From NCBI GenBank assembly GCA_964351625.1, contig CAYGOV010000017.1:4054-68053 (forward strand): a stretch of 64,000 bases of DNA, read 5' to 3'. The translations under genes and the position numbers were made by a program. The notes below the pieces were generated by a model, which saw nothing but the letters and a program-made list of their open reading frames with translations, was not told the origin of the DNA and ran no database searches. This document shows positions 18,629 through 55,474 of this stretch, in pieces. The first letter of the stretch is position 1. The number at the start of each line of letters is the position of its first letter. The stretch comes from an uncultured Marinoscillum sp. GTDB lineage: Bacteria > Bacteroidota > Bacteroidia > Cytophagales > Cyclobacteriaceae.

Positions 18629-18636
18629 CCTACTGA

Positions 18637-26448: not shown

Positions 26449-26453
26449 AGAAT

Positions 26454-33957: not shown

Positions 33958-34007
33958 CTCTTTAAAAATCAATGGCAAATATAAATATTATTCAATATAC
34001 GCAATGT

Positions 34008-36625: not shown

Positions 36626-36645
36626 CTTTTTTAGAAAATACAACC

Positions 36646-39266: not shown

Positions 39267-40082
39267 ATGAAATTGGTTCTTACCTTATCGATGTGTGGCT
39301 TTCTTTTTATAAACGTGTATTGCCAGAAATTGCAGACCTCATTTGAGGATAAAGAAATAAATAAAGCCATTTTTGATGCCCGCAGGCTCTGCTGCGAACA
39401 CTCTATAAGTTTTGATAGCAGTATCATGGCTGACGGTAGGTATAGTTTAAAATTTACCTTAAATAGAGAAGACGAATTTTATCGGGACAATGGTCAACTT
39501 AGAAAAACAGCCAATAAAAGAGCTGAAATAGGAACAATTGATAATGTTGACAGCCTATTATACAAGTACGGTAGTGAATATTGGTATAGTTTCAAAGTGT
39601 ATATACCAGAGACTTGGATTGATGAAGAAAACATCGAGGAAGAAACCCGACAAAATAGAGATATAGTATCACAATGGCATTGGAAAAAAGAAGATACAGA
39701 TGAGTCTGGAAAACCTGCTTTGGCGATAGCTGTTAATGGGGATAAATGGACCGTGATAAATTCCTATCAAACCGACAATACTCTTGATAAAGCATCAGAA
39801 ATTTCGTCGAGTTACTTTGCAGGCAAAGTGCAGAAAGGAACGTGGGTGACATGGGTAGTGAATGCGCTTTGGTCCAATGAAGAAAATATTGGGTTTATTA
39901 AAATCTGGAAAGACGAAATTTTAATAGCAAATCTAAAAGGCTCTAATTGCAATAAAGATAGAAACATTATTTACAAATTTGGCCTATACAAACCCCGCTG
40001 GACCTCCAGAAAAACGAATGTAAGCACTCGAGAGATCTATTTTGATGATATCAAAATATCTCAAGAACCTTTTGGAAAATAA
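39267..40082 (+). CDS. Exported polysaccharide lyase, heparin-lyase-I-like beta-jelly-roll (Polysacc_lyase family)
   Basis: Signal peptide; KRAEI, YWYSFKVYIP, SQWH, GFIKIWKD, YKFGLYK and IYFDDIKI motifs. Confidence 0.75.
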   Translation: MKLVLTLSMCGFLFINVYCQKLQTSFEDKEINKAIFDARRLCCEHSISFDSSIMADGRYSLKFTLNREDEFYRDNGQLRKTANKRAEIGTIDNVDSLLYKYGSEYWYSFKVYIPETWIDEENIEEETRQNRDIVSQWHWKKEDTDESGKPALAIAVNGDKWTVINSYQTDNTLDKASEISSSYFAGKVQKGTWVTWVVNALWSNEENIGFIKIWKDEILIANLKGSNCNKDRNIIYKFGLYKPRWTSRKTNVSTREIYFDDIKISQEPFGK

Positions 40083-40137
40083 TTCTAACCTGAACATCAA
40101 TGTTTCTAATGCTACAAGCATAGCGGTTTTATATTAC

Positions 40138-40173
40138 TTTTTTTTGGGGGGGGGGTAACTCTTTCTACCTTTA
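40138..40173 (+). promoter_or_regulatory. T8-G10 homopolymer inside a putative -33/-7 promoter
   Basis: TTTG at 40143-40146, a 19-nt spacer containing nine of the ten Gs, then TACCTTTA at 40166-40173 (one mismatch to TAnnTTTG). Confidence 0.5.
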
Positions 40174-40205
40174 GGGTAGTTTAGCCACTTTTGATTCCGC
40201 GCCTC

Positions 40206-43200
40206 ATGAAACAGTTATTACTACTCCTTTTTTTTATATGTTCTTTTCTTGCTATGGGACAAACCTTTGATGGTTTTGCTCCTACAGGTGCTAAAATGAA
40301 TTTAAGTACTGATTACCCTATTCCTCAAGCCCAAGACATCCTAATCTCTCCTTCCGGGCATAAACTTTATGTACTTAATTATTCGTGGCTTTATCAATTC
40401 ACTTTAGGTGTGCCATTCAGCATAGAGAGTGTAAAATTAGACGGTCGCTACCCATTATATACGCATATGCCATGGTCACTAGGTTTAGATATTAGTAGTG
40501 ATGGAAAAAAAATGATCATCTGCGGAAAAGATGGTAATAATAATTCACAGCTAGTGCAGTATATCTTATCTGATGCATTCGATGTACTGACAGCTGATTT
40601 TGATCTTAAATTCTCTTCAAGAGAAAAGACAGCTGTAGATGTGAGCTTTAATCAAGATGGCACAAGACTCTTAGTTCTGGATGGTTTTACTGATTTACAG
40701 GACTTTTCGGGGAAAAATTTAATCAATGAATACAGCTTACAATCTCCATATGATATTAATACCATAGTCTTTTTAAGGAGGGGACTAGAAATAGATGCAC
40801 CCTATACTTATATATCTGCAATGGGATTCAGTAATAATGGTACCTCTTTGCACCTGGTTCAACTTCAGAATTCTTACAATACCCGTAACGATAGACATTT
40901 TAAGTTGTCCAGTCCCTATGTAACCAAAAACGCTGAACTCATAGCCGGTACTCCTTCTCTAACAAATGACGTGGTGTCTTTTGCTCTTAGTTTGAACGAT
41001 TCTAAACTTTTATTTCTCATATATGACCCCTATGGATCGGATAAAATACGAGAATACGAGAACATCAGTCCTCAAATATCTATCTCCAACACTTCACAAT
41101 CACATAATATCAATGAAATTGATTCTGTAAGCCCTTTTTCCACAATGAATCTTTATTATCGGGGCACTGATTTACTATCGGCAACCATACGTCTAAGCAA
41201 ATACGAGCACGGTGTACTCTCAGGAAATGAACTTCAAGGTACAGGTCCTTATACAACAAGTAATCTTTCAAAGGACGATTTATCCAGTCTTCTCCGTTCA
41301 TTAAAGTTTAAACCTACGGAAGGTCTTGCCACACCTGGAGATTCAATAGTAACAAACTTCACCATTGAAATCACTAATGGTGAAGCAGTAGCTATAGATA
41401 GTTCTACTTCAGTCTGTGCCTACATTGAACCTCCAATCATCACTTTTGAAAATGTTCATTATGAAATAGCGGAGGGTGACTCGACTCTTCTGTTTTCAAC
41501 AGTTGAAATTAAAGATAGCGATCAGGATTCCCTGAGTGCAACCATTCGAATGACTGACTATGCGAACGGAACGTTAACTGCAGAAGGACTTCATGGGACT
41601 GGCCCATACACTACCGAGAAGTCATCCATTGCTGAAATAAATGCACTATTGAGTCGTATCAAATTCCTCCCCGCTCAAAATCTTGCTCAATCAGACAGAC
41701 CAGTTACAACGGAATTCACCATTCGAGTGACAGACGGTCAGCATTTTGTAAAAAATACTGTAAGTAAGATCACTGCGTACCTACCGGGACCGACTATAGT
41801 GTTGAAGCAGGATACATTTATGACAATAGAAGAAACAGAAACTACCGAGTTGTTTTCTAATATTTCAGTTAAGTATTTTGGTAATGAGCCCCTATCGGCA
41901 AAGATTACATTAAGCGAGAATGGAAATGGATCACTTACCGGTGATGACTTACTCAGAGATGAGCCTTACCGAATTAAAGCTACCAATCTAGAAGATCTTC
42001 AAAATTCGCTCAGGTCAGTTATTTTTCATCCAACAGAAGGGCTGGCAAGGTTTGACAGCCCTGTGCAAACGCTTATAACGATTGAAATAACTGATGGCGA
42101 ATCTTCGGCGGTAGAAAGCAGTAGAATTCAAGTCAAAGTACTACCTAAAACTGTCGTGTCGAGCATTGAAAATGCTACTAAGACTGGTAAATTTGTTCGA
42201 CCTGTTTCTAGCATAAGAAACTTTTACTTTCTGCAGGATGGGGTTAAACTAGTTGTTATTGTAGATAATATACTTTATCAATTTTCATTAAGTGATCCAT
42301 ACAACGTTGAAAGAACCTCGATTGATGGAAAAATTGAAATGATCAACCCACAGTCAATTGATTTCAATGATGATGGATCTGTACTTTATGTTGTTGGACA
42401 AAAAAACCTATATCAATATGATTTAGCCACGCCTTATAATGTCTTGTCATGTTCTGCTGAATACACTGAAATATCTTTTGGAGACGAAGTTGGATATGCA
42501 ACGGACGTTAAGCTTTATAATAATGGCTCTTTCATGAGTATTGCTGACAGAAATTTTGACCAGATTTCAAAATACCAGTTATCAACAAGCTATGACATTA
42601 CTACTGCAACATACCTAAACAAAACCATTGAACTCAGACATGGTATTCTAAATTTTCGATTTGTCCAAGATGGTTATTTTTTATACACAGTAAGTGAAAA
42701 TTCTAAATATCAAATCTATGAGCTAAAACAACCATTTGAAACAGAAAATGCAAAATTATTAAAAAGTGGAGTCTTTCCAGTAGGCTATGTCACCGCTTTG
42801 GCATTCTTACCCAACCTTAATAATTTTTATCTTTCACATTCTATAGGTAATGAGAATAGAATTTCGGAGTATGAAATTTCTAAAGTTCCAATGATTAAAA
42901 GCGAGAATCAACTGTATTCGATCAATGAAAAAAATAGTGTCTCTCCTTTTTCATTGACCAAAATACGTGATGAGGATAGTGATTATTTGTCAGCCAAAAT
43001 CGTCTTGAGTGATTCCCCAAATGGCACCCTTTCAGGTCCAGGCTTGATAGGTAGTGGTCCATACACTACAGACACTTTATACCTTTATGATTTAGAGACA
43101 TTACTCCAGTCCATAGTATTCAAACCAACAGACGGGCTTGCTCAATCAAAAAATCCAGTTTCCACCGATATTATTCTGGAGATAAGCGATGGTAGAAAGG

Positions 43201-46200
43201 TTGCAACCGAGACAATTACTATCATAACTAAAACAGACCCTGAAATACAATCTATATCCTCAGTGAACGATACTCCTACTGATGGTCAAATTGCATTTGA
43301 AATACATTTTGATGAGTCCGTTCAAAATGTTGACCTATCAGATTTTATTTTGGAGACTTCTGGAGACTTATCAGGCGAGATGGAGTCTATTACAGGAAGT
43401 GACCGTCTTTATGAAGTTTCTGTTTCTGTATCCAATGATAAGGGTGCGCTATTTTTGAGATTAGACGAAACAAATAATGATATCACCGACCTGGAAGGCA
43501 ATCCGGTGATCAAAGGATTTACAGGCGAGGCATACATCAACTACACTATTGACCTAAGAGATGCGAAGTATGCAGGAGAGTTGGGGGAAGCATTGGACTT
43601 AAAGGGACTCAAAGTACGAGCCACTGCCTTCGATGATGATGGAGATCAGATTTTTGCCACCTCGATTAGGGGGAGAATGCTATTTTCTTACAACCTTCGA
43701 GCTCCTTTTGACATACAAAGTATCGACGCGGAAAGTAAAGTTGTTTATACTTTTCCAAATAACTTGAACCTGACACCTAAGTCCTTCAAATTTATTGACG
43801 ATGGAAATATGCTTCAGGTGATGGAAGTTTCGGGGGATTTTCATGTATTCCAGCTTTCATCATCGTATGATATTTCTACACTTTCCCATGAGTACCGTGC
43901 CCAAGTAGCCACCAGTTACCCCAAAGACTTTTCCTTCAATGATGATGGCACAAAATTAATTTTGTTACAAGATCAGACATCTTTGGAAGAGTATACACTC
44001 TCCACGCCTTTTGATTTGCGTACTGTTACAAGTGTAGCTGATCCTATTTCCTTAAATAGCATATATGGAGATAAGATCATTGGCGCTTCCATGCTCTTTG
44101 ATGCTACTGGACTGTATTTATTTGTGGTAGAACAAAACAGAATTATAAAATTTGAGCTTCTTACTCCTTTCGATATACAAACCATATCGTATTCAGGAGA
44201 CAAAGCGAGACTCCCTTTGAAGGATATAGTAGAAACCACTTCCAGGTATATGACCTTCAATGATGACGAGTCCAAGTTTTTTATCCTCGGATATCGTGAA
44301 ATTCATGAATTCTATTTAACGAACGCACCTGTATTTGTTCGACATGATTCTACTTCGCTTACTCTATACAATGAACAGGACTCTGTCAATCTTTTTTCTA
44401 GAACCAACATTTATGATCTGGACCAGGATAGTATAGCCATCACCATTTCATTACAGGATCCATTAGCAGGACAACTGGTAGGTGCTGGTCTAACTGGAAG
44501 TGGACCTTATGAACTCCGTTTACTATCTGAAGACTCATTAAATAGTGTCTTGCAATCCCTTTGGTTTAAGCCAACTATAGGTAGGTTGACCGAATCTACC
44601 AAAGATACCGTTACTTTCAGACTGGATGTGACAGACGGAAACCACTTCACCATTGACACTACACTAACGGTGATTATCGACTTGCCACCTAAACTTTTAA
44701 GCATCCGAGTAGATGGTACGCCTGACACTTCTGCAACAGAGATACATTACCTACTTACCTTTTCAGAAGCAGTAGAAAATGTGGATCTCACAGATTTTGA
44801 ACTCATAACGAGCCAGTATGTGGATGCTGAGTTATCTGCCATCTCAGGGACTGGGGCTGAATACCTGTTGAACCTAACCGAAATAATTGGTGATGGTGAA
44901 CTGTCTGTGTCTTTAAAGGAGACCAACGACATTGTTGACAATTATGGCTATGCCCTTTCTGCTCACCCAGAGGGGGAATTACATAACGTAAAGAACTCAA
45001 CTGCGTTTCCTGAAATTAGTGGTACTATTTCTAATCAAAATGTTCATGATGAAGCAATTAGTTATCCTTTCAGAGATATCATCATTACTTGCCAGGAGGA
45101 TGTAGCTATTGAGGTGGAAATGGATAGCTATGAATATGGGGTTTTGATAGGAGATAATATTAATGGATCCGGAGATGATTCTGGTAGTGGACCTTATACC
45201 ATCAGTACTACCAACAGTCAGACCGCTCAAGAAATATTGCGGAATGTTCGTTTTGAACCGATCAAAGGAGAAATATCAAATGGAAATGTTCAAGAAATAA
45301 CAGTATCAATCAAAGCAACTTCAGGACCTTTTGACGTACAGGACAGTACTACCAACCTGATTCTTAATTCAGCTCCTTATGTGGAGCACATCTCCATCCA
45401 TTCTTTTCCTGATTCGACCAATAGCATCCTACAATTTGGAGTTACATTCAACGAAGAAGTGTTTGGAGTTAGTTTGAGTGATTTTACCATTGATGCATCT
45501 TCCAATGTCATGGCAGATCTTATAAAAATGGAGGGGGCAGGTAAAGATTATATCATTTCTGTTAGCAACATTTCAGGGGATGGAATAGTCAGCTTAGATT
45601 TTTTGTCTGAGAGCCAGACATCCTTCATTCTGGATATTCATTCAAACCAGGCAAAACATGAATTCACAGAAGGAGCCGACTACAATACAGGTCGTGCATT
45701 TGAGATTTCAGAATTTGCCAAGATTGAGAAGGTCAAAAGGCGCATAAATGATTTAGCGCGCTCATTTGTCTTCATCAATGATGGAGAGGAAATGATTACG
45801 CTTTCGAATTATGACGAGGTGCGAGAAAAGAATAAGGCAATTCTGAAAAAGTACAATCTTTCGACACCTTATGATGCTACTACCGCGTATGAAATTATTG
45901 AGAGAAGAGTTGAACTTTCTAGACCAGATGAATATGGCATGGATTTATTATCGAATAGCGATGGATCCAAAATATTCATTAGCAATGGAACTTCTATAAT
46001 AGAATATGTGTCTCACAGTGGACTAATAGCGGATCTGGAAAGGGAGAACTCCATTTGGGAAGAATCACTTGGTAGGGAAATGGTTTTTAACAATGACGGA
46101 ACCAAACTTTTCATATTTGAGCCATTTAGCTATTCAGGCTATGATAATAAAAATAGGCTGTATAATTTGGCCGTGCCTTATGATCTCTCCACAGCTGAAT

Positions 46201-46829
46201 TTGAAGAATTCATCCCTTTTATAGCAGAAGAAGTCATTGAAGATGTTAAGTTCAATTCCGATGGGACAAAATTTTATGTTTTGTCTAATGCTAATTATAA
46301 TTATTCTAATGCAGAAGTTCGACAATTTGCTCTGACCTCTCCTTATGATGTTTCTTCTGCTGAATTAGATACAGTAATGATATTAAATACAACAGGATGT
46401 AAATTCGGTAATCTCTCAGAGATGGGATTTAGCAAGGATGGAACATTCTTGAATAATTTATTCTATTCGAATAATAAATGTGATCTTGGATCAGCCTGGT
46501 TTACAGCGTTTTATTTAAAAGAAAATGATGGTGCTGAAAATGGACGAATTGATGACAACCCTGAAAGTGAGCCTTTATATGCTCATGACAAAATGATACC
46601 TGGGACAGTCACAGTCTACCCTAACCCAGCGAAATGCACTCTTTACCTCAAGAATATACAAAGCATTGAAAGTGTGAGTTTGTACAACCTCGCCGGAGTA
46701 GAAGAGGACATGAGATGGTTCGGACCTGATGCTATAGATGTTTCTCACATGAAAAGCGGGATTTACATCCTACAGTTCATGGAGAATGGAGCATACAGAT
46801 CTATGCGAGTTGTTATTGGAGAGGAATAA
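40206..46829 (+). CDS. Giant modular T9SS type-A-sorted surface protein (about 2207 aa)
   Basis: Signal peptide MKQLLLLLFFICSFLAMGQ from the ATG at 40206; repeated propeller-like LSTPYD modules and Ig/cadherin-like modules; C-terminal VYPNPA...SGIYILQF CTD. Confidence 0.88.
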   Translation: MKQLLLLLFFICSFLAMGQTFDGFAPTGAKMNLSTDYPIPQAQDILISPSGHKLYVLNYSWLYQFTLGVPFSIESVKLDGRYPLYTHMPWSLGLDISSDGKKMIICGKDGNNNSQLVQYILSDAFDVLTADFDLKFSSREKTAVDVSFNQDGTRLLVLDGFTDLQDFSGKNLINEYSLQSPYDINTIVFLRRGLEIDAPYTYISAMGFSNNGTSLHLVQLQNSYNTRNDRHFKLSSPYVTKNAELIAGTPSLTNDVVSFALSLNDSKLLFLIYDPYGSDKIREYENISPQISISNTSQSHNINEIDSVSPFSTMNLYYRGTDLLSATIRLSKYEHGVLSGNELQGTGPYTTSNLSKDDLSSLLRSLKFKPTEGLATPGDSIVTNFTIEITNGEAVAIDSSTSVCAYIEPPIITFENVHYEIAEGDSTLLFSTVEIKDSDQDSLSATIRMTDYANGTLTAEGLHGTGPYTTEKSSIAEINALLSRIKFLPAQNLAQSDRPVTTEFTIRVTDGQHFVKNTVSKITAYLPGPTIVLKQDTFMTIEETETTELFSNISVKYFGNEPLSAKITLSENGNGSLTGDDLLRDEPYRIKATNLEDLQNSLRSVIFHPTEGLARFDSPVQTLITIEITDGESSAVESSRIQVKVLPKTVVSSIENATKTGKFVRPVSSIRNFYFLQDGVKLVVIVDNILYQFSLSDPYNVERTSIDGKIEMINPQSIDFNDDGSVLYVVGQKNLYQYDLATPYNVLSCSAEYTEISFGDEVGYATDVKLYNNGSFMSIADRNFDQISKYQLSTSYDITTATYLNKTIELRHGILNFRFVQDGYFLYTVSENSKYQIYELKQPFETENAKLLKSGVFPVGYVTALAFLPNLNNFYLSHSIGNENRISEYEISKVPMIKSENQLYSINEKNSVSPFSLTKIRDEDSDYLSAKIVLSDSPNGTLSGPGLIGSGPYTTDTLYLYDLETLLQSIVFKPTDGLAQSKNPVSTDIILEISDGRKVATETITIITKTDPEIQSISSVNDTPTDGQIAFEIHFDESVQNVDLSDFILETSGDLSGEMESITGSDRLYEVSVSVSNDKGALFLRLDETNNDITDLEGNPVIKGFTGEAYINYTIDLRDAKYAGELGEALDLKGLKVRATAFDDDGDQIFATSIRGRMLFSYNLRAPFDIQSIDAESKVVYTFPNNLNLTPKSFKFIDDGNMLQVMEVSGDFHVFQLSSSYDISTLSHEYRAQVATSYPKDFSFNDDGTKLILLQDQTSLEEYTLSTPFDLRTVTSVADPISLNSIYGDKIIGASMLFDATGLYLFVVEQNRIIKFELLTPFDIQTISYSGDKARLPLKDIVETTSRYMTFNDDESKFFILGYREIHEFYLTNAPVFVRHDSTSLTLYNEQDSVNLFSRTNIYDLDQDSIAITISLQDPLAGQLVGAGLTGSGPYELRLLSEDSLNSVLQSLWFKPTIGRLTESTKDTVTFRLDVTDGNHFTIDTTLTVIIDLPPKLLSIRVDGTPDTSATEIHYLLTFSEAVENVDLTDFELITSQYVDAELSAISGTGAEYLLNLTEIIGDGELSVSLKETNDIVDNYGYALSAHPEGELHNVKNSTAFPEISGTISNQNVHDEAISYPFRDIIITCQEDVAIEVEMDSYEYGVLIGDNINGSGDDSGSGPYTISTTNSQTAQEILRNVRFEPIKGEISNGNVQEITVSIKATSGPFDVQDSTTNLILNSAPYVEHISIHSFPDSTNSILQFGVTFNEEVFGVSLSDFTIDASSNVMADLIKMEGAGKDYIISVSNISGDGIVSLDFLSESQTSFILDIHSNQAKHEFTEGADYNTGRAFEISEFAKIEKVKRRINDLARSFVFINDGEEMITLSNYDEVREKNKAILKKYNLSTPYDATTAYEIIERRVELSRPDEYGMDLLSNSDGSKIFISNGTSIIEYVSHSGLIADLERENSIWEESLGREMVFNNDGTKLFIFEPFSYSGYDNKNRLYNLAVPYDLSTAEFEEFIPFIAEEVIEDVKFNSDGTKFYVLSNANYNYSNAEVRQFALTSPYDVSSAELDTVMILNTTGCKFGNLSEMGFSKDGTFLNNLFYSNNKCDLGSAWFTAFYLKENDGAENGRIDDNPESEPLYAHDKMIPGTVTVYPNPAKCTLYLKNIQSIESVSLYNLAGVEEDMRWFGPDAIDVSHMKSGIYILQFMENGAYRSMRVVIGEE

Positions 46830-46881
46830 TACTTTGAAGCTATTCGATTATCAAAACCAATGAGCAGGGTAATAGCTACCT

Positions 46882-48603
46882 CTAATTGATTACTAATCGG
46901 CTTGTACATGTTCCAACCTTCACAATATAAAGACCACTAGGGAGTCTTGATATGTCAATCAATTTTTGTTGAGAATCTATGGTATAACCTGTTAACTGAA
47001 GATTACCCAAAGCATCGTAAATAGACACTTTATTTGATCCTCCCCCTATTATATTGATACTTACTTCACCATTTGTGGGATTAGAATATATCTTAAACAA
47101 TTCATTGCAATCTTCTTCAACTAAATCCCATGAGCCCCAAGGTAAGCTACTAGGTGCCGGTTCATTATCTGAGTTATTTTCAACACCTGGAGGTAATGCA
47201 GCCTTCCATCCTTGTTTCAAGCGAATTGCCAAGTCATTACGTATAGATGCATATTTTGGATCATTAACCACATTAATTGACTCACTGTTTTCTATTTTCA
47301 TATCATACAGCTCTCTACTAATAAATTTATGATCCTTTAGATTTCGCCATTCTACATACCTGTAATCTTCAGTACGGATACTGTAGCCCTCAAAATCCCT
47401 ACCTCTATTAAACTGACTAAACACAGCTGATTTCCATTCTTTATTAATATCATTAAATAGATTATTAAAACTGGTTCCCTCTAACTCTTTCCTAGGTTCG
47501 TTCCCGATAAAGTCAACTAAAGTTGGATATATATCGACATACTCCACAAATTGATTCAACGAAATTCCCCCTTTATTACCAGGTAATTTGACAATTAGTG
47601 GAGATCTGGTGGCTATTTCATAATTAGTTGATTTGCCCCACATCCCTTGATCACCTAGGTGAAACCCATGATCTGACATCAAAACAATTAACGTATTTTC
47701 ATATTCTCCCGATTCTTTAAGTTTATCAAGCACTTGTCCCACCATAGCGTCGACGTAACTTATACACGCATAATAACCTTGCTTTAGTTTTAGTTGATAA
47801 TCATCCGGAATATTGTTTCCGTTGAGAGTATTCGGCCCTGCATAGAGCGATAACTCATGATGGGCTGTAGTATAAGAAGGTGCATACAATGGATGAGATG
47901 AGACAGACGCTAGTTGAATGTCTACAGAATCATACAATCTCCAGTACTTTTCTGGGGCATTAAATGGTAGATGAGGCTTTTTGAATCCCGCAATAATCAA
48001 AAAAGGTTCATCACTACCCTTCATATCATCTATCACTTCGGTAACTCTTTTTGCTATCAACCCATCTTGATAGGCCGTATCCGAAACTTGTGCTCTTTCA
48101 AAATGGGGGGTGAATTCATTTCTCTTTTGGTCACCCGCTTTGTCAATGTTTTCCTGAAGGGCGTAAAAACCAAGATTTTCGGCTGAATAGTGTGTATTTT
48201 TAATATTATCCTGTCTGTTGCTATGATGTACCTTACCTAAGGTAAAAACATCATAACCTTCCTGTTCAAAATGCTCTGAAATTGTAGGATTATTAGGCCA
48301 AAATTCATTATTAAAATATGGATTATATGGATAATCAACGCCAGTTGTAGTAGGCCTAAAACCAGTTAAAAAACTTGCTCTAGATGCTGAACAGACTGCT
48401 TGCTGAACATAGGCTCTGTTGAATAAGAATCCATCTTTAGCCAAATTATCTATGTTCGTAGAAATTATCTGGTTATTTCCATAACATCCAAGATCAGGTC
48501 TCAAGTCATCTATTATTATTATAAGGACATTTGGCCTAGCACCATTACCCATGCCACAAAAAGGCACCAAAATGAATGTCATTATAAATAACCAATTTTT
48601 CAT
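46882..48603 (-). CDS. Sulfatase, iduronate-2-sulfatase-like (S1_7-like), with T9SS CTD
   Basis: Signal peptide; DDLRP; CSASR active site; KPHLPF; SDHGFHLG; C-terminal IYSNPTNG...SGLYIVKV. Confidence 0.88.
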   Translation of the reverse strand: MKNWLFIMTFILVPFCGMGNGARPNVLIIIIDDLRPDLGCYGNNQIISTNIDNLAKDGFLFNRAYVQQAVCSASRASFLTGFRPTTTGVDYPYNPYFNNEFWPNNPTISEHFEQEGYDVFTLGKVHHSNRQDNIKNTHYSAENLGFYALQENIDKAGDQKRNEFTPHFERAQVSDTAYQDGLIAKRVTEVIDDMKGSDEPFLIIAGFKKPHLPFNAPEKYWRLYDSVDIQLASVSSHPLYAPSYTTAHHELSLYAGPNTLNGNNIPDDYQLKLKQGYYACISYVDAMVGQVLDKLKESGEYENTLIVLMSDHGFHLGDQGMWGKSTNYEIATRSPLIVKLPGNKGGISLNQFVEYVDIYPTLVDFIGNEPRKELEGTSFNNLFNDINKEWKSAVFSQFNRGRDFEGYSIRTEDYRYVEWRNLKDHKFISRELYDMKIENSESINVVNDPKYASIRNDLAIRLKQGWKAALPPGVENNSDNEPAPSSLPWGSWDLVEEDCNELFKIYSNPTNGEVSINIIGGGSNKVSIYDALGNLQLTGYTIDSQQKLIDISRLPSGLYIVKVGTCTSRLVIN

Positions 48604-48639
48604 CTGAGCTAAATTAATTTATCTAAATTTTACATTTAT

Positions 48640-48687
48640 AAACTGTCCGATTAGATGGGAAGGCTACAAGAAAGGATAGGTTACACG
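48640..48687. repeat. Intergenic repeat copy 1 (AAACTGTCCG...AAGAAAGGATAGGTTACACG)
   Basis: 48668-48687 matches 52615-52634 at 19 of 20 nt; both are preceded by AAACTGT(C/A)CG. Confidence 0.7.
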
Positions 48688-48711
48688 ACTTAACTACATA
48701 TTTCATCAATA

Positions 48712-49533
48712 ATGAGAAAATTTGAAAAAAGAAGCCTTTTATTACTATTTGCTTTACCGTTAGTAATAAATGCTTGTAATAAAAATGAAATTTTAAATTT
48801 TAATACAGAAGAAATACCATACTCAGTCATTTTGATTGCAGGACAATCTAATACTCATTATGGCTTTGGCTTCAATAAAAATGAGGTTGAAAATAAAACA
48901 AGAATAAAACAATTAGGCAGGTTTGGTGATAATAATATGAAAATAATAGATGCTTTATCTCCGTTAGACCACCACACTAAAAAAAAAGACAGAATCGGTT
49001 TTGGGATTACTTTTGCTCAGCAACTAGAAAGTGACTTCAAACAATCTAATATTCTGATAATTCCTTGTGGATATGAAGGCACTGGATTTATTGATAATCG
49101 CTGGAACAAAGATGATGATTTGTATAACGATGCAGTAAATAGAGTAAGAAATGTGTTAGAGGAATTTCCAAATAGTGAATTAACAGCTATACTATGGCAT
49201 CAAGGAGAGAAAGATGTCAACAATCCTAACTACAAGAAACAATTAGATGACTTTATTATCGATATAAGAAATGATTTAAATGCAGATAGTATCCCATTTA
49301 TTTTAGGAGGTCTTGTACCATATTGGGTCAAAAAAGAAAAGAAACGCATTATCATACAAGAAGTGATAAAAAATACAGTAAGACGACATTACAATATTGG
49401 GTTTGCTGATACAGAATTTCCATTTGTTATCGATAAACCAGATAATAATTTTGAACAAAAACATTTTAGTGCCGATGGACAAAAAGAATTAGGGAAAAGA
49501 TATTTTAACGAGTTCAAAAGACTGAGCAACTGA
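48712..49533 (+). CDS. Sialate/carbohydrate O-acetylesterase (SASA/CE6-like SGNH) lipoprotein
   Basis: Lipobox INAC; AGQSN catalytic Ser block; LWHQGE; C-terminal xxHF. Confidence 0.82.
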   Translation: MRKFEKRSLLLLFALPLVINACNKNEILNFNTEEIPYSVILIAGQSNTHYGFGFNKNEVENKTRIKQLGRFGDNNMKIIDALSPLDHHTKKKDRIGFGITFAQQLESDFKQSNILIIPCGYEGTGFIDNRWNKDDDLYNDAVNRVRNVLEEFPNSELTAILWHQGEKDVNNPNYKKQLDDFIIDIRNDLNADSIPFILGGLVPYWVKKEKKRIIIQEVIKNTVRRHYNIGFADTEFPFVIDKPDNNFEQKHFSADGQKELGKRYFNEFKRLSN

Positions 49534-49701
49534 AATGAAATCAGGTAGCTATTCTTAATACTCTTGCTTTTTTAACCATAATCTATGGTGAAAATATTAG
49601 TTGAATGAATTTTGTAATAAAAATTCTCACCTAGCTTAAGTAGATTATGTCAGTTTAGCATAAAGACAAACATTTAATTAAACATTATTTCTAGTAAAAA
49701 A

Positions 49702-51357
49702 TTGAACCAATTCGTCTCAATCTATTCTTACTTAATAATTACTCTATTATCATCTAATGCTTTTAGTCAGAATATATTGATAATTACTGCTGACGATTTA
49801 AACTATAACTCTCTGGGGTTTGCTGGATGTGATATTGAAAATATTTCACCCAATCTAGATTCACTGGCTTCCAAAAGTCTTGTTTATGAGAATTTCTTCG
49901 TTTCCACCTCGATTTGCCACCCATCAAGGCAATCAATTTTGACAGGAAAATATCCTCATAATTATGGCAGTGTGGGATTTAAGCCTATTGGGCCAGATAA
50001 TATCACCCTTGTAGAAGCATTACAAGATGTAGGATATTTCACTGGGATGATAGGAAAAATTGGGCACGCTACACCAGCAGAGAAATTTCCCTGGGATTAT
50101 AAAGTTGACAAAAGTAATGAGGGAATCGGCCTAGGGAGATCTCCATCAAAGTTTGAAAAATTTACTGATGCCTTTTTTACGTCAGTCCCAGATGACCAAC
50201 CTTTTCTCTTGATAGTAAATTCGAGTGATCCCCATCGTCCTTTTGCCAATAGCTCTGAGGAAAAAAGACTTCTTCAAACGAGTTGGTCAAATCGTGAACC
50301 TCCTGAATTGAATAGAATCATTACTCCAGAGGAGATTCAAATTCCATATTGGCTTCCTGAAGAGGATAGCATCAAAGAAGATTATGCTAATTACTACACT
50401 TCCGTTTTTAGATTAGATGAGACAGTTGGTCGAATATTAACAAGCTTAAGAAATAGTAAATTCAGTGAAAATACAATTATCATTTTTTTATCAGATCATG
50501 GAGCTCCTTTCCCTCTTGCTAAGTCCAATGTCTATGTTAATAGTCTAAAATCGAACTTAATTATAAACTGGAAAAATCAAATACTGCCTAGAATAGATTC
50601 TAACAACTTCATTTCAGCTATCGATCTATACCCCACTATCTGGGACCTACTAGACTTACCAGAATCGGTGAAAGATGAAAATTTAGATGGCACTTCATTT
50701 AAAGAATCAATCTTCGATGTATCAAATGAATTTTCAAAAAAAAGCTACTCTTTATTTAATGAGACTGCTGGAGAAAAAGTGTACGAGATGAGATCTGTAA
50801 GTACTGATAAATACCATTACATCTATAATCAATGGCCCACTATGGGTGAGGAATTCAAATTTAGACCTGGGCTTACTTTCAAGACCATTGAAATGATTAT
50901 GACAGACGATAGTGTCGCAAAATCAATTTATGATAAAACTGTATTCCGCACAAAGGAGGAATTGTATCTTCCAGCAGATGATGAAAATACCATGAATGTT
51001 GCAAAACTTGCTGGATACAGTTCGCTGATAGATGAAGCTCGTAAGGAGTTATTGAGTATGATGAATTATTATCATGATCCGCTTTATGAATTAGTGAAGT
51101 TTGATTTGGAAAACCCTTTTAAAATTAATTCAGAAAACCCTTTAGTTGAGCTCTATCCAAATCCAGCAATCCAATCAATCTCCATAAAAACCAATCTAGT
51201 AGAATATAGTCTTATGCTATTTGATTCTATAGGTCGTTCAATAGAGTTTAAATTAGATGAAAATGAGATTGATATATCGAACTTTAAAAAGGGACTTTAT
51301 ATACTTCGTATAAATACAGATAATATAAGCTTTAATAAAAAATTTCTTAAAAGATGA
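49702..51357 (+). CDS. Sulfatase, sulfamidase/heparan N-sulfatase-like (S1_8-like), with T9SS CTD
   Basis: Signal peptide; ADDL; CHPSR; DPHRPF; SDHG; C-terminal LYPNPA...KGLYILRI...KKFLKR. Confidence 0.86.
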   Translation: MNQFVSIYSYLIITLLSSNAFSQNILIITADDLNYNSLGFAGCDIENISPNLDSLASKSLVYENFFVSTSICHPSRQSILTGKYPHNYGSVGFKPIGPDNITLVEALQDVGYFTGMIGKIGHATPAEKFPWDYKVDKSNEGIGLGRSPSKFEKFTDAFFTSVPDDQPFLLIVNSSDPHRPFANSSEEKRLLQTSWSNREPPELNRIITPEEIQIPYWLPEEDSIKEDYANYYTSVFRLDETVGRILTSLRNSKFSENTIIIFLSDHGAPFPLAKSNVYVNSLKSNLIINWKNQILPRIDSNNFISAIDLYPTIWDLLDLPESVKDENLDGTSFKESIFDVSNEFSKKSYSLFNETAGEKVYEMRSVSTDKYHYIYNQWPTMGEEFKFRPGLTFKTIEMIMTDDSVAKSIYDKTVFRTKEELYLPADDENTMNVAKLAGYSSLIDEARKELLSMMNYYHDPLYELVKFDLENPFKINSENPLVELYPNPAIQSISIKTNLVEYSLMLFDSIGRSIEFKLDENEIDISNFKKGLYILRINTDNISFNKKFLKR

Positions 51358-51409
51358 AAATCGTAGAAGTCAGCTAAGCATACTATATCCCTTTTTTATG
51401 AAAGTCTAT

Positions 51410-51904
51410 TCATTTTTTAGACTCTAGCATTTTATTCAAATCTGCATATAAAATTCTTCCTCCTTCTATAGCTAAAAGGATAAATGGAAGACCGAAAAGA
51501 GTTTTTAGCAAGTGAGAGCATAATTGCTGCCAATGAACTAAATCCAAAAATCCAAAAATTATTCTACCTGTTAACAAGATCAAAACCAAACTAGCTAAAC
51601 ATATAATTAAAATTTTTCTTGCTCTTGAATTACCAAACAAAAAATGAATAAATAATAAATGAAGCAATAAGTATATTGGGTAATATAAAAGTCCACCAAT
51701 ATTCTTTTGAAAGAAAACTGTTCTTTCATAGTTGATATTCATCCATTCAAAAATAGAATTCGGATTGATATTAACTAAGTCCAATAGATAAAGTGTGGTT
51801 GCTGAAAAGAATTTCAAAATCCAATTTTTCAACAACCCAAATAAGATTATTATAAAAAGTACGAAAATTGAAAATACTCTATTAATGCTCATTCCGATGA
51901 ACAA
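51410..51904 (-). CDS. Exosortase-associated membrane protein (XrtX-associated-like)
   Basis: About 4 TM; overlaps the exosortase gene; PFILLAIEGG motif. Confidence 0.6.
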   Translation of the reverse strand: MFIGMSINRVFSIFVLFIIILFGLLKNWILKFFSATTLYLLDLVNINPNSIFEWMNINYERTVFFQKNIGGLLYYPIYLLLHLLFIHFLFGNSRARKILIICLASLVLILLTGRIIFGFLDLVHWQQLCSHLLKTLFGLPFILLAIEGGRILYADLNKMLESKK

Positions 51905-52439
51905 TATTTCCTATACCTGAATATCTGTTCAGCCAGAATCTCCAAATTAGGAATACCATTGAATAAACTACTAATACGTAAGTGTACTTATGATTAAAAT
52001 CGAACGTTTCTCGGAAAAACATATAATTTAAGGCTAGTATAACCTCTCGGATAACATTAAGTAAATAAATCAAAATTGATCCAATAATGATAAAGGTCAA
52101 TTTATAATTCCACTTTCCTGGAAACGCGATAATAAAACCCATGAACAACGCTATTAATTCTATCCCATTACATCCATCAGCCACTGACAACACTGGAGTA
52201 CCATCAACATAAACATAGCGGCTATTAATTCCAGGTCCGTCGGGTCTAAATTGAGTGTTGGTATCGTGACCTAATATTGCAAGGCATGTTCTAGTCAAAT
52301 CCACTACCCTCATTGACATCCAATGGTCAACGCGACCATCAGGCCTAACAAAGCCTTGGTATAAAATCAACCAGCCGAAAAACAAAATTATTATCCTAAT
52401 AATAAAGGTTCGTAAAATTGTTTTTAGATTTTGTTTCAT
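51882..52439 (-). CDS. Exosortase/archaeosortase-family transpeptidase (XrtX/XrtF-like)
   Basis: Catalytic triad motifs VADGCNG (Cys), NVIRE (Arg) and FNHKY (His) in a compact TM protein. Confidence 0.85.
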   Translation of the reverse strand: MKQNLKTILRTFIIRIIILFFGWLILYQGFVRPDGRVDHWMSMRVVDLTRTCLAILGHDTNTQFRPDGPGINSRYVYVDGTPVLSVADGCNGIELIALFMGFIIAFPGKWNYKLTFIIIGSILIYLLNVIREVILALNYMFFRETFDFNHKYTYVLVVYSMVFLIWRFWLNRYSGIGNIVHRNEH

Positions 52440-52604
52440 TTTATGATATTCTTAAGAATTTACAAATAAATTCAATTAAAAGAGGAATTAGTCCACAGCA
52501 GTTTGTACTTGACAATGAGAATCAAGCCAACGGAGAACATCACAACTTTGCCACTTTTAACAACAAGAGTATTGTAATGAATAGCTGAAATATTTAAAAT
52601 TGAA

Positions 52605-52634
52605 AAACTGTACGAAGAAGGGATAGGTTACACG
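52605..52634. repeat. Intergenic repeat copy 2 (AAACTGTACGAAGAAGGGATAGGTTACACG)
   Basis: Direct repeat of 48640-48687, lacking the internal 17-18 nt. Confidence 0.7.
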
Positions 52635-52686
52635 GTTAAAACCAATTAAACATATTGGCAATAATTAATATAAATAAAGAACGCGA

Positions 52687-53961
52687 TTAGATTTTCCCGA
52701 CGGTCCCATTAATCTTATCTAGACTTTTAAGCGCTATTGCCATCGAAAAAAGAATTACAGGATAAGAGTTCATGAATATTGGCTTGGTAAAATGAAAGAT
52801 GACCATCGCTGCTATCATGCCGATAAAATATTGTTTATCATATTGGCTATCTTCCTCCTTAATAGAAGATTTATATACCATTCTGAGTAGGAGTGAATAA
52901 ATAATTATCCCCATAAGCCCAAACTCACCAAGTATAGAAGCAAAATTACTTTCATAAACACCCTGCATCTCAGTAAAATGTCTATTCGTTAACCCGTACT
53001 TCTGATAAACCTTACTTCCCTCGGAAAACTTAGTTCCAAATGAACCTGCTCCAGCGCCAATAGGAAAATTGTTTCGAGCTATTACCGTAGAATAATAGAG
53101 CAGCAAACCTCTCGTATAATTTGATTCATCCACAGATATGGTTTGGGCAATATTCGTTTTAGTTTTTTCGTAAAGCTCTGTGTCTTTCAAAAGAATTACG
53201 GAAAATACGGTAATTAAAAGAAATAAAGAGATTACAAAAGATCGCAATATGAAGCCAAAATGTTGTTTTGTAAATATGGAAAATGTGATCGGTAAAAGTA
53301 AAAGAGGTGTTCTACTACCAGTTAAGAAAACTAATGCTATAAAAATTATTGTTACTATCCCATATTTGAGATATGTTAGCTTTTTACCATCGTAAAGCAA
53401 ATAGTATAGATAAAAAACTCCTAAAGTGATTCCAATATTATTTGGTTGTACTTGGAACCCTGCTAGACGCAAAAAATCGTTTCGATAGACAAGCTCAAAG
53501 CCTACCCAGTTATTAAATCTCTCCTGAAAAATCAGATTAATAATTACACCTATTGTCGTAATCCATAATATTGCAAGAAAACACTTTTTTAGTGTGTTAG
53601 GGTATTCCTTAAACAACCACACAAACGCAAAAACCAAAATGAAAAATTTCAAATGTATTATATTTTGGAGAATTACGTTAATCAAATAAAAGTTTATCCC
53701 CAGGAAAGAAATAGCAGTAAAATACGCGTAAGCTACGAAAACGAAAAAAACTGTTAATTTAAATTTTTGAAGAAATAGCAATCTCAAACCAAAGACTAAA
53801 AAAACTAACCCCACCAAGAGCTCATCGAAATTTGATAAAAAGCCAATTCCTGTAATTGCTTGAAGAAAATTTTGGAAAAGCACAATAAATATTATTGGAA
53901 TTGCAACAATAATATTTACGAATGCACTTTTTTTCTGGTTATTATTAAAGTGTAATTCCAA
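52687..53961 (-). CDS. wzy: Wzy polymerase / O-antigen-ligase-like membrane protein
   Basis: About 11 TM; RLAGFQVQPN, LTGSRT and PIGAGAGSFG periplasmic-loop motifs. Confidence 0.75.
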   Translation of the reverse strand: MELHFNNNQKKSAFVNIIVAIPIIFIVLFQNFLQAITGIGFLSNFDELLVGLVFLVFGLRLLFLQKFKLTVFFVFVAYAYFTAISFLGINFYLINVILQNIIHLKFFILVFAFVWLFKEYPNTLKKCFLAILWITTIGVIINLIFQERFNNWVGFELVYRNDFLRLAGFQVQPNNIGITLGVFYLYYLLYDGKKLTYLKYGIVTIIFIALVFLTGSRTPLLLLPITFSIFTKQHFGFILRSFVISLFLLITVFSVILLKDTELYEKTKTNIAQTISVDESNYTRGLLLYYSTVIARNNFPIGAGAGSFGTKFSEGSKVYQKYGLTNRHFTEMQGVYESNFASILGEFGLMGIIIYSLLLRMVYKSSIKEEDSQYDKQYFIGMIAAMVIFHFTKPIFMNSYPVILFSMAIALKSLDKINGTVGKI

Positions 53962-54820
53962 AATCTTTTCTTAATTTTTCTAAATCATTTTTAAAATACT
54001 GATCTGTCAATAATTTATTTTCATCCGTCATCTTAACTTTTTCTTTCATTGTGTTTTTGCTCATTAACCATGGCATAAAAATAGACCTAAGAGAAACTAT
54101 CAAATTTCGAGGAATTATAATTCTTAATGTTTTCTTAATCAGACTATCTTGATTTTTTACTATCCGAGTAATAAACCATTGTATGATGCGGTATTTTGAT
54201 TTGCCCCCCTCATTAAATTTCTTGTCTGTGTCTACCTGAATCAAATCCAGACCTAAAAAATCATAAACTTTATTTAGAGTACCTTTTACATCTCGACTCA
54301 ATTCCTCAGTGGTTAAAACAAGTAAGTTAGATCTCTCAAATACCTCCAGCCACTTAGTTAAATGCTGGTGATATAATCCATTTCTAAAATACGCTAGGTC
54401 GTATAATTCTCTAAAAGACAAGTTTGGACGCCAATCTCTTTTCATAGATTCAATAAAACTCACCTCTTCTTTCTCCCATCCATGTTTTATAGCGTGTCGG
54501 TATGCTGAATATGCCCGATCAGAAGGATTCCTGAGAATCGCAATTAACTTCATAGAAGAATTATAACTTCTTACGCGTTCAGGAACTTCTATTCCTGGTA
54601 GTAGGTGAGCATGCGATGTTAGAATAACTTTCTTCGTTTCACAATTAGGGAAAAACGAATGAAACTCATTTTTCCCTTTATCAAACAATCTTCTTTCTAG
54701 AAAAAAATTGGTTTCTTTAATCTTCGAAGTGCATACATCTGGATGCTGCTGAAGGTAATAAAATAACGAAGTTGTTCCGCCTTTTTGAGTTCCTATGATT
54801 AACGTGTTCACCAATAACAT
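53945..54820 (-). CDS. PAPS-dependent sulfotransferase (2 of 4), heparan-sulfate-sulfotransferase-like motifs
   Basis: IIGTQKGGTTSL...HPDV...KETNFF and KLIAILRNPSDRAYSAY motifs. Confidence 0.88.
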   Translation of the reverse strand: MLLVNTLIIGTQKGGTTSLFYYLQQHPDVCTSKIKETNFFLERRLFDKGKNEFHSFFPNCETKKVILTSHAHLLPGIEVPERVRSYNSSMKLIAILRNPSDRAYSAYRHAIKHGWEKEEVSFIESMKRDWRPNLSFRELYDLAYFRNGLYHQHLTKWLEVFERSNLLVLTTEELSRDVKGTLNKVYDFLGLDLIQVDTDKKFNEGGKSKYRIIQWFITRIVKNQDSLIKKTLRIIIPRNLIVSLRSIFMPWLMSKNTMKEKVKMTDENKLLTDQYFKNDLEKLRKDFGITL

Positions 54821-54865: not shown

Positions 54866-55474
54866 ATGCAAAAAGTTTTTGGAATAGGGTTTCATAAAAC
54901 AGGAACTACGACACTAGAATCTGTTCTTACGAACCTAGGATACAAGGTGTGTGGTCCAAAGCGTGAACTTTTAGACTCAATAAAGTCTAACGATCTTAAA
55001 CATATTTTTCAATTAGTTGAAAAATATGATGCCTTTGAAGACGTTCCATGGCCTTTGATCTTTACAGAACTTGATCGTAAATATCCCAATAGTAAATTTA
55101 TTTTAACGACAAGAGATTCTGATAAATGGATAAAGAGTATTGTGAAACATTTCGGTTCTTCAAAAACCAAAATGAGAGAATTCATTTATGGAGTTGGCGA
55201 TCCTCGAGGTAATGAAGAAATTTACATCGAACGTTATATAAACCACAATGAATCTGTAAAGGCTTACTTCAAAGATAGACCAAATGATTTATTGATAATA
55301 GACTGGTCCAAAGAGAATGATCTATCCAGAATCTATGACTTCTTAAACATAGAATTACCGCCAAATAGAGTGCCACATAGTAATAGTGGAGATGCCAGAA
55401 AGTATGAATATATTAGAAAAATAAAGTCAAATTTTAAAGTTGGGCTAAAATCCTTTTTCGCGAAATTAAAATGA
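54866..55474 (+). CDS. PAPS-dependent sulfotransferase (3 of 4), short Sulfotransfer_4-like
   Basis: VFGIGFHKTGTTTL, FEDVPW, KFILTTRDSDKWIKS and PHSN motifs. Confidence 0.82.
   Translation: MQKVFGIGFHKTGTTTLESVLTNLGYKVCGPKRELLDSIKSNDLKHIFQLVEKYDAFEDVPWPLIFTELDRKYPNSKFILTTRDSDKWIKSIVKHFGSSKTKMREFIYGVGDPRGNEEIYIERYINHNESVKAYFKDRPNDLLIIDWSKENDLSRIYDFLNIELPPNRVPHSNSGDARKYEYIRKIKSNFKVGLKSFFAKLK

Follow-up and report, generated by a model that had tools for sequence, protein, structure and literature searches.

The question raised by this locus is whether a set of sulfatases, a polysaccharide lyase and an esterase that lie among sulfotransferases serves the synthesis, the editing or the consumption of a sulfated glycan, and which kind of glycan this would be. 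The window, i.e., the whole stretch of 64,000 nucleotides that was analysed, corresponds to C17:4054-68053 (contig CAYGOV010000017.1) within a 4.9-Mb assembly (98% complete) of an uncultured Marinoscillum sp. The interval 39267-54820 forms the variable part of a mostly minus-strand polysaccharide locus of approximately 48 kb and contains nine open reading frames (ORFs), encoding a lyase, a giant protein of the type IX secretion system (T9SS), two S1 sulfatases, a SASA esterase, an XrtX-associated protein, XrtX, a Wzy_C protein and a Sulfotransfer_1 protein. An initial annotation had read this enzyme set as a parallel to heparan/glycosaminoglycan (GAG) metabolism. Our analysis points, with moderate confidence, to a Wzx/Wzy-dependent locus for a sulfated exopolysaccharide (EPS) or capsular polysaccharide (CPS) that includes self-directed trimming and editing enzymes. 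Judged from the gene content, its product is most likely a heavily O-sulfated, O-acetylated acidic heteropolysaccharide, made as capsule or EPS by a marine Cytophagales-type member of the Bacteroidota.

The presence, within one polysaccharide cluster, of sulfotransferases and of genes that synthesise 3'-phosphoadenosine-5'-phosphosulfate (PAPS) has been called the hallmark of loci that make sulfated polysaccharides (PMC11641403). Here, cysC-cysD-cysN-cysQ lay directly upstream of wza, and four sulfotransferases were encoded among the glycosyltransferase (GT), Wzx, Wzy and Wzz genes. Past the window end, the contig carried rmlB-rmlA-rmlC, a UDP-glucose dehydrogenase gene (UGDH), UXS, a TviB-like gene, and cysC, cysD, cysN and cysQ abutting wza. 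Starting at wza, the variable region in the window continued with Wzz, a sulfotransferase (59961), a GDP-mannose 6-dehydrogenase (58654), a GT4 (57486) and Wzx (56162), followed by a plus-strand pair of a Sulfotransfer_4 protein and an alpha/beta hydrolase, and then by a further sulfotransferase (53945), Wzy, XrtX and the block of secreted enzymes. Beyond this block followed a second GT4 (38174), a sulfotransferase (37170), a hexapeptide acetyltransferase, Gmd, Fcl, a WcaJ-type transferase and a WecA-like PF00953 protein. At the level of sequence, it is supported that the locus should make a sulfated glycan containing uronic acid.

All four sulfotransferases had a PAPS P-loop at their start and no signal peptide, so that sulfation would be expected to take place in the cytoplasm, on the lipid-linked repeat unit. 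The enzyme at 37170-38177 (-; 335 residues) matched Sulfotransfer_3 (1.5e-24) and Sulfotransfer_1 (1.5e-15), carried its P-loop at residues 11-19, and had orthologues of 70-86% identity in related loci. The enzyme at 53945-54820 (-; 291 residues; Sulfotransfer_1, 5.6e-20) was an HS3ST/NDST-like carbohydrate sulfotransferase with 3RNL (2.9e-20), HS3ST1 (4.2e-20) and NDST1 (1.7e-15) as PDB matches. Its 5'-phosphosulfate-binding loop (GTQKGGT) and 3'-phosphate-binding motif (RNPSDRAYS) were present, and the Glu of KETNFF aligned with that of NEVHFF, the catalytic base of 3-OST-1. The resemblance to heparan sulfotransferase domains, proposed from the motifs IIGTQKGGT and KLIAILRNPSDRAYS, was thereby borne out. 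Its fold is the one generally found in carbohydrate sulfotransferases, and the sequence tells neither the acceptor nor N- from O-sulfation; homologues were found in 20 of 41 related genomes. The two remaining sulfotransferases were a Sulfotransfer_3 protein at 59961-60800 (-; 279 residues; PF13469, 9.8e-07; N-terminal P-loop GCGRSGTT) and a Sulfotransfer_4 protein at 54866-55474 (+; 202 residues; PF17784, 1.9e-26), with an orthologue of 73% identity in a related locus, L035. Co-conserved with the latter (73% in L035) was an alpha/beta-hydrolase-like protein of 228 residues at 55471-56157 (+). It had a weak match to Hydrolase_4 alone (8.4e-06), no PDB match under E 0.05 and no informative NCBIfam match; the weakest hint (E 0.28) was to the fold of the capsule O-acetyltransferase SacC.

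A uronic-acid donor, as claimed in the initial annotation, was indeed encoded, but the gene in the window (58654-59961, -) is predicted to yield GDP-mannuronate rather than the product of a UDP-glucose dehydrogenase. Pfam and NCBIfam matches had suggested the latter enzyme, an assignment that was dropped after a full-length match to the GDP-mannose dehydrogenase 1MFZ (4.5e-148, residues 1-435 vs. 1-436); the best UDP-glucose dehydrogenase reached merely 1.4e-70. This AlgD-like GDP-mannose 6-dehydrogenase is paired with the GT4 glycosyltransferase at 57486-58673 (-; Glyco_trans_1_4, 8.8e-21), a candidate mannuronosyltransferase, and the polymer should therefore contain mannuronate. The pair was also kept in L035 and in L066. 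GDP-L-fucose would be provided by Gmd, the GDP-mannose 4,6-dehydratase (35513-36643, -; TIGR01472, 586 bits vs. a cut-off of 415), and Fcl (GDP-L-fucose synthase, 34274-35203, -; NF047922, 496 bits, E 3.5e-149), so that GDP-mannuronate and GDP-L-fucose were the variable region's own donors. Beyond the window end, UXS was identified as a UDP-glucuronate decarboxylase (human UXS1 match, 4e-109) and the TviB-like gene as a UDP-GlcNAc dehydrogenase. The polymer is probably composed of glucose or N-acetylhexosamine (HexNAc), fucose, mannuronate and perhaps further sugars. An ulvan-like product was also considered, given the ulvan specificity of the best sulfatase relative and the fact that rml, UGDH and UXS could give rhamnose, glucuronate and xylose; it was not adopted because those donor genes are conserved between genera and belong to the head that the loci share, while the locus-specific donors are GDP-mannuronate and GDP-fucose.

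The claim of a HexNAc-1-P initiator stood only as regards family membership: the protein at 31382-32482 (-) belonged to the PF00953 polyprenyl-phosphate HexNAc-1-P transferases (WecA/WbpL family; Pfam 3.7e-42), but scored 153 bits against TIGR02380 (WecA), under the cut-off of 326 bits, and adjoined a WcaJ-type undecaprenyl-phosphate glucose-1-P transferase. The latter (32572-33978, -; TIGR03023, 458 bits vs. a cut-off of 411; Bac_transf, 6.9e-66) is likely the initiating enzyme. The PF00953 gene formed a conserved tail of the locus, at an equal position in L035, L068, L072 and L073. The second GT4 (38174-39211, -; Glycos_transf_1, 2.1e-33) was divergent from the lyase over a gap of 55 bp, and a hexapeptide-repeat O-acetyltransferase (36646-37173, -; Hexapep, 6.5e-19) had orthologues of 75-83% identity in L032, L033 and L035. 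Two GT4 enzymes and two phosphoglycosyl transferases were the only glycosyltransferases of the locus. Its export genes comprised a Wzx flippase (56162-57493, -; Polysacc_synt, 3e-19), a Wzy-type polymerase of the Wzy_C family (52687-53961, -; PF04932, 8.2e-08), a Wzz chain-length determinant (60797-61882, -; Wzz, 9.1e-08; GNVR, 3.1e-06), and a Wza-type outer-membrane exporter (61914-64000, -; SLBB, 5.2e-45; Poly_export, 4.5e-10) that extended past the window end.

The lyase at 39267-40082 (+; 271 residues) was a beta-jelly-roll protein of family PF14099 (1.5e-37). It probably acts in the periplasm, like AlgL, because it had an N-terminal Sec signal and no T9SS tail. A PDB search with the single sequence gave merely E = 0.075 to 2ZZJ, an endo-beta-1,4-glucuronan lyase of polysaccharide lyase family 20 (PL20), and a profile of 71 sequences and an AlphaFold2 (AF2) model were needed for the assignment. 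The profile matched 2ZZJ over its full length (3.5e-26, positions 32-269) vs. heparinase I in two partial stretches (3e-13). In agreement with this, the top Foldseek match of the model (pLDDT 89) was 2ZZJ, at a TM-score normalised to the target of 0.74 vs. 0.43-0.47 for heparinase I. The lyase was approximately 100 residues shorter than heparinase I (approximately 370 residues) and had no thumb insertion of the heparinase I kind. Of the earlier claim of heparin-lyase-I-like fold motifs, the jelly-roll family was therefore retained and heparin lyase I itself was not. The catalytic residues Gln136, His138 and Tyr241 were present: across the family alignment of 71 sequences, Tyr241 was invariant and Gln136 nearly so, His138 stood in the QWH motif of the query, and the three aligned with Q149, H151 and Y357 of heparinase I. 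On the basis of profile and model, the protein is predicted to be a competent, PL20-like uronate lyase.

The sulfatase at 46882-48603 (-; Pfam Sulfatase, 6e-49) carried a T9SS tail (Por_Secre_tail, 1.8e-09) and the quoted motifs DDLRP and KPHLPF. With bit-score ranking against PDB structures as a proxy for the SulfAtlas hidden Markov models (HMMs), and subfamily labels taken from PMC9096561, its two best matches were of subfamily S1_7 (6HHM, 2.6e-85, 290 bits; human IDS, 1.6e-57, 198 bits), and the best match outside S1_7 reached 131 bits. By this ranking, the predicted membership in S1_7 holds, and with it the iduronate-2-sulfatase-like family proposed initially. Its S1 catalytic set was complete, with residues D32/D33, C71, R75, K124/H126, H211, D311/H312 and K324 conserved across 86 homologues. 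The formylglycine motif had the form C-x-A-x-R (C71-S-A-S-R75) in 86/86 of these, vs. the usual C-x-P-x-R in IDS and 6HHM. Homologues of the formylglycine-generating enzyme were encoded in the source genome.

For the sulfatase at 49702-51357 (+; Sulfatase, 4.5e-37; Por_Secre_tail, 4.7e-11), the best PDB match was human SGSH (1e-36, 130 bits), and the other S1_8 structures (9BB9, 72 bits) ranked under S1_19 and other subfamilies, so that its assignment to S1_8 is tentative. Automated names of its homologues included 'N-sulfoglucosamine sulfohydrolase' and 'Ulvan-active sulfatase'. In SGSH, Arg282 replaces a Lys conserved in O-sulfatases and sets the N-sulfatase apart (PMC4014121). In the present enzyme, Lys274 aligned with Arg282 in an ungapped stretch, and Lys occupied this position in 120/120 nearest homologues, in all of which the DPHR motif was likewise invariant. 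DPHR, which had been taken as a sign of a sulfamidase, therefore marks a clade rather than this activity, and the enzyme resembles an O-sulfatase. Characterised members of S1_7 include IDS, an ulvan endo-xylose-2-sulfatase (6HHM) and a kappa-carrageenan galactose-4-sulfatase, and those of S1_8 include SGSH, an ulvan exo-xylose-2-sulfatase and lambda-carrageenan galactose-2-sulfatases (PMC9096561, PMC12549532). Because of this variety of substrates, a GAG cannot be read from subfamily membership, which gives no more than a hint of sulfate in position 2.

Between the two sulfatases lay a SASA/CE6-like carbohydrate O-acetylesterase (48712-49533, +; PF03629, 1.4e-34; the acetylxylan-esterase-related 1ZMB, 2e-14), a probable lipoprotein with a Cys after its signal sequence (...VINAC).

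The distribution of these genes was examined in related loci. Close homologues of the lyase were rare: there were three only among 5.8 billion proteins (78, 70 and 67% identity) and none above 35% identity across 201 family genomes; no S1_7 orthologue above 42% identity to sulfatase 46882 occurred in 14 congeners. Both genes thus go with the type of locus rather than with the genus. In the contigs fetched for two of the homologues (P0003 and P0005; loci L032-L035), the lyase was always divergent, by approximately 50 bp, from a GT4-sulfotransferase-acetyltransferase module, despite rearrangement of the remainder of the locus, and a large T9SS protein lay behind it. In L032 and L033, orthologues also covered the S1_7-like (67%) and S1_8-like (56%) sulfatases, the esterase (69%) and XrtX. 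Judged from this synteny, the lyase would be a core component of the locus and the sulfatases accessory ones. One congener had a different PF14099 lyase immediately after Wza (HMM E 1.6e-71). Among congeners, cysCDNQ-Wza was kept at 80-95% identity and the downstream genes differed, and the head rml-UGDH-UXS-cysCDNQ-Wza-Wzz was found in a Marinoscillum sp. metagenome-assembled genome (MAG) and in a Cyclobacteriaceae MAG as well. Identity between genera was 63-90% over the rmlB-rmlA-rmlC-UGDH-UXS part of this head (C17:66000-79625, L010) and reached 86-90% for UGDH and UXS, vs. 43% for the adjacent Wza. A conserved supply region thus gives way abruptly to a variable one of serotype-like character.

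Across the family, at least 15 of 121 genomes, nearly all of different genera, had CysC no more than 10 kb from Wza. The 20 kb downstream of Wza were scanned for sulfatases in 14 such cys-Wza loci, one of which ended at a contig edge. The locus of genome G142 contained one sulfatase with a T9SS tail beside three sulfotransferases, and that of G107 had two sulfatases scattered among three sulfotransferase and two GT4 genes, followed by Gmd-Fcl-WcaJ-XrtX-WecA-like. A T9SS sulfatase was located between cysQ and Wza in the Cyclobacteriaceae MAG. In all, S1 sulfatases lay among sulfotransferase and GT genes in such loci of other genera (L061, L064 and L068), two of the four with T9SS tails. In L064 (genus g130), a GHL10/GH18-like hydrolase (18369-19628, -) followed the embedded T9SS sulfatase, so that another locus carries a different cutting enzyme in place of the lyase. 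The source genome had nine PF00884 sulfatase-family matches, two of them in the locus. G107 had four and G142 two, among which the locus sulfatases were counted by E-value inference and not by position; congeners without embedded sulfatases had 64-81. Under a Poisson expectation, calculated post hoc, approximately 0.06, 0.013 and 0.008 sulfatases would fall in the loci of the source genome, G107 and G142, respectively, vs. two, two and one observed, which makes chance co-location very unlikely within the limits of a post hoc test.

What was observed, from the families and intact catalytic residues of the enzymes to their localisation signals, synteny and recurrent arrangement, leads us to propose the following mechanism. 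CysDN and CysC would make PAPS, and CysQ would remove the by-product 3'-phosphoadenosine-5'-phosphate (PAP). GDP-mannose would be converted to GDP-mannuronate by the dehydrogenase at 58654 and to GDP-L-fucose by Gmd and Fcl, and the conserved head would add genes for UDP-GlcA, UDP-Xyl, the dTDP-Rha pathway and UDP-GlcNAcA. The WcaJ-type (or the WecA-like) transferase may start the repeat on undecaprenyl phosphate, which the two GT4 enzymes would extend; the hexapeptide acetyltransferase and the four sulfotransferases would add their groups to the lipid-linked unit while it is still in the cytoplasm and PAPS is at hand. Wzx would then flip the unit, Wzy polymerise it, and Wzz and Wza export the polymer. 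Outside the cytoplasm, the Sec-exported PL20-like lyase may cut at uronate and serve, like AlgL, in clearance or in the control of chain length, the lipoprotein esterase may take off O-acetyl groups, and the two T9SS O-sulfatases may take off sulfate esters, probably at position 2. Sulfatases and esterase would thereby act as post-export editors or recyclers of the cell's own polymer. We infer this self-direction from the one-for-one match between secreted enzymes and biosynthetic decorations. This parallel of degradative-type and biosynthetic enzymes was supported for lyase and uronate donor, esterase and acetyltransferase, and sulfatases and sulfotransferases.

Alternative readings of the same genes were weighed against this model. 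The proposal of a heparan/GAG-like polymer of uronic acid and hexosamine, with N- and O-sulfate and with the S1_7 sulfatase, the S1_8 sulfatase and the lyase as counterparts of iduronate-2-sulfatase, sulfamidase and heparinase, started from motifs that were present as quoted and are family signatures rather than chance matches, given the Pfam E-values and the matches to IDS, SGSH and HS3ST1. In its favour, IDS, SGSH, HS3ST/NDST and heparinase I were all significant PDB relatives, the locus included genes for a HexNAc-1-P transferase-like PF00953 protein and for a TviB-like UDP-GlcNAc dehydrogenase, and a sulfated GAG-like EPS has been reported from marine Pontiella (PMC7356697). Against it stand Lys in place of Arg282 of SGSH in sulfatase 49702, a lyase that is PL20-like and lacks the insertion of heparinase I, and variable-region donors that are GDP-mannuronate and GDP-fucose rather than UDP-GlcA/IdoA and UDP-GlcNAc. 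Assembly relied on GT4 enzymes and Wzx/Wzy only: no processive GAG synthase (GT2/GT45-type), KpsMT-type export genes or N-deacetylase turned up in the set of locus ORFs with 100 or more residues, and no aminotransferase was found in the locus. A glucuronyl C5-epimerase (PF06662) was found nowhere in the genome above cut-off, which leaves no source of iduronate. We consider an N-sulfated GAG-like product highly improbable.

A foraging island presents a different case. Here, the lyase, the esterase and the two sulfatases would attack external algal sulfated polysaccharides (ulvan-, fucoidan- or carrageenan-like) and would have landed in a recombination-prone capsule region. The closest characterised relatives of the sulfatases do act on algal polysaccharides (the ulvan xylose-2-sulfatase 6HHM; S1_8 ulvan and lambda-carrageenan 2-sulfatases), and the GC content of the secreted block (0.37-0.39) exceeded that of the flanking biosynthetic genes (0.32). 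Several further observations weigh against self-directed editing, most of them pointing the same way. The nearest non-orthologous S1_7 homologue (55% identity) sat in a catabolic multi-sulfatase cluster beside a GH29 fucosidase; T9SS secretion is typical of foraging enzymes too; L035 kept the lyase and had neither sulfatase nor esterase, which makes these enzymes dispensable for synthesis; and no sulfatase lay closer than 20 kb to Wza in the majority of the cys-Wza loci that were sampled from other genera. In addition, the locus carried two initiating transferases, and the rml/UGDH/UXS head, conserved between genera, may serve other glycans, which renders the composition uncertain. On the other side, the secreted block contained no SusC/SusD, glycoside hydrolase, regulator, transporter, or sugar- or uronate-catabolic gene. 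Neither at 31-64 kb of the window nor on the rest of the contig was a SusC/SusD pair with glycoside hydrolases or a regulator found, and the sole TonB-dependent receptor (18637-21087) lay 18 kb away with no identified adjacent SusD-family gene; the reading as a polysaccharide utilisation locus (PUL) was rejected on these grounds. A genome with only nine sulfatase-family genes is not that of a sulfated-glycan specialist, the sulfatases recurred in equivalent biosynthetic loci of other sulfatase-poor genera, and every contig fetched for the close homologues of the lyase showed it tied to the GT4-sulfotransferase-acetyltransferase module. Foraging is therefore judged unlikely, though it deserves consideration. 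In Porphyromonas, T9SS type-A cargo is attached to anionic lipopolysaccharide (A-LPS), and by this precedent the sulfated glycan could be a surface anchor (O-antigen or A-LPS-like) for T9SS cargo, among it the giant protein and the sulfatases encoded here, with anchoring and not editing as its purpose. Three type-A tails encoded within the locus, a large T9SS protein in the same slot in all close relatives, and the fact that the Wzy_C family also covers O-antigen ligases would fit this; Wza and Wzz, however, point to export of a free capsule or EPS, and an anchoring role gives no reason for the cargo enzymes to be sulfatases, which makes it improbable.

Under the preferred reading of a sulfated EPS or CPS locus with self-directed enzymes, a further step may be suggested tentatively. 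The locus could constitute a write/erase system for glycan sulfation, in which cytoplasmic sulfotransferases write densely placed sulfate on the lipid-linked unit and, once the polymer has been exported, the secreted or surface-located T9SS sulfatases, the esterase and the lyase edit pattern and length. It would be a functional analogue of the extracellular editing of heparan sulfate by Sulf1/Sulf2 in animals. Just as tentatively, such a system may recur across several genera of Cyclobacteriaceae-like Cytophagales, the members of which are usually treated as consumers of marine sulfated glycans.

The remaining genes of the block encoded secreted and membrane proteins. The giant, repetitive T9SS cargo protein of approximately 2200 residues (40206-46829, +, within an ORF from 40191; Por_Secre_tail, 5.5e-08) was preceded by a T8-G10 homopolymer tract at 40139-40156, approximately 50 bp upstream of its likely ATG (40206). 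In close relatives, its slot was filled by a non-homologous Ig-like T9SS protein of approximately 1230 residues, of which the C-terminal sorting domain alone aligned. Exosortase X (XrtX; 51882-52439, -; NF046081, 185 bits vs. a cut-off of 170) adjoined an XrtX-associated membrane protein (51410-51904, -; NF046082, 1.4e-07, under cut-off). In several genera, XrtX and its partner membrane protein also stood at the tail of such loci for sulfated polysaccharides, with WcaJ on one side and the WecA-like gene on the other (e.g., L068, 17629-18556; L073, 6804-7830). Upstream of the locus (24346-27198, +), a PP2C phosphatase of SpoIIE type that carries GAF domains and, behind it, an anti-sigma-type kinase (HATPase_c_2) make up a partner-switching module that is probably unrelated to it.

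Among known systems, the alginate locus of Pseudomonas offers a useful comparison. It encodes the donor enzyme AlgD, the synthase Alg8/44 and, within the biosynthetic locus, the periplasmic lyase AlgL (PL5), and its product is not sulfated. The present locus resembles it in combining a GDP-mannose 6-dehydrogenase donor with a Sec-exported lyase, kept in every close relative examined, and differs in using Wzx/Wzy instead of Alg8/44, in having a PL20-like jelly roll instead of a PL5 lyase, and in the predicted sulfation. With IDS, SGSH, HS3ST/NDST and Bacteroides heparinase I, the locus enzymes have fold families and catalytic cores in common; the replacement of SGSH Arg282, the shorter lyase and the lack of any further part of the GAG pathway separate them from these human and Bacteroides comparators. 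In the ulvan PUL of Formosa agariphila, P18_S1_7 (6HHM) and P32_S1_8 form a pair that acts on one position, xylose-2-sulfate, in endo and exo mode. That pair lies in a catabolic SusC/D PUL with many glycoside hydrolases and lyases, whereas the present one lies in a biosynthetic locus, bears T9SS tails and has the C-x-A-x-R motif in its S1_7 member.

Closer parallels on the biosynthetic side are the capsular clusters of the marine Gammaproteobacteria Vibrio sp. KMM 8419 (PMC11641403) and Cobetia marina KMM 1449 (PMC11766843), which have a second cysC/cysN/cysD set and sulfotransferases, with rml and other donor genes in the cluster. The Vibrio cluster uses ABC-transporter (Kps) export, and its description mentions neither sulfatase nor lyase (PMC11641403); unlike it, the present locus is of Bacteroidota type and has Wzx/Wzy, an extra cysQ, secreted sulfatases, a lyase and an esterase. 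The xss cluster for synechan in Synechocystis is alike in being a Wzx/Wzy-type EPS locus with dedicated sulfotransferases (PMC8205485). It differs in being cyanobacterial and without T9SS cargo, and no sulfatase, lyase or hydrolase is described there (PMC8205485). Sulfated CPS and EPS clusters with PAPS genes and sulfotransferases are thus already known from Vibrio, Cobetia and Synechocystis, and what is new is the combination found in Bacteroidota, with T9SS formylglycine sulfatases and an esterase interleaved with sulfotransferases, recurring across genera.

Likeness to IDS, SGSH, HS3ST and heparinase I alone does not indicate a GAG. The locus is rather a place to look for pairs of sulfotransferases and sulfatases of matched specificity, for use in making defined sulfated glycans. 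It also bears on the reading of sulfatase counts in metagenomes and on which organisms are credited with the sulfated glycans of marine particles and biofilms. Sulfatases of marine Bacteroidota are usually read as foraging enzymes; in sulfatase-poor genomes, a large share of them may serve the cell's own glycan. Marine Bacteroidota, studied almost solely as degraders of algal sulfated polysaccharides, are indicated here as producers of sulfated polymers too.

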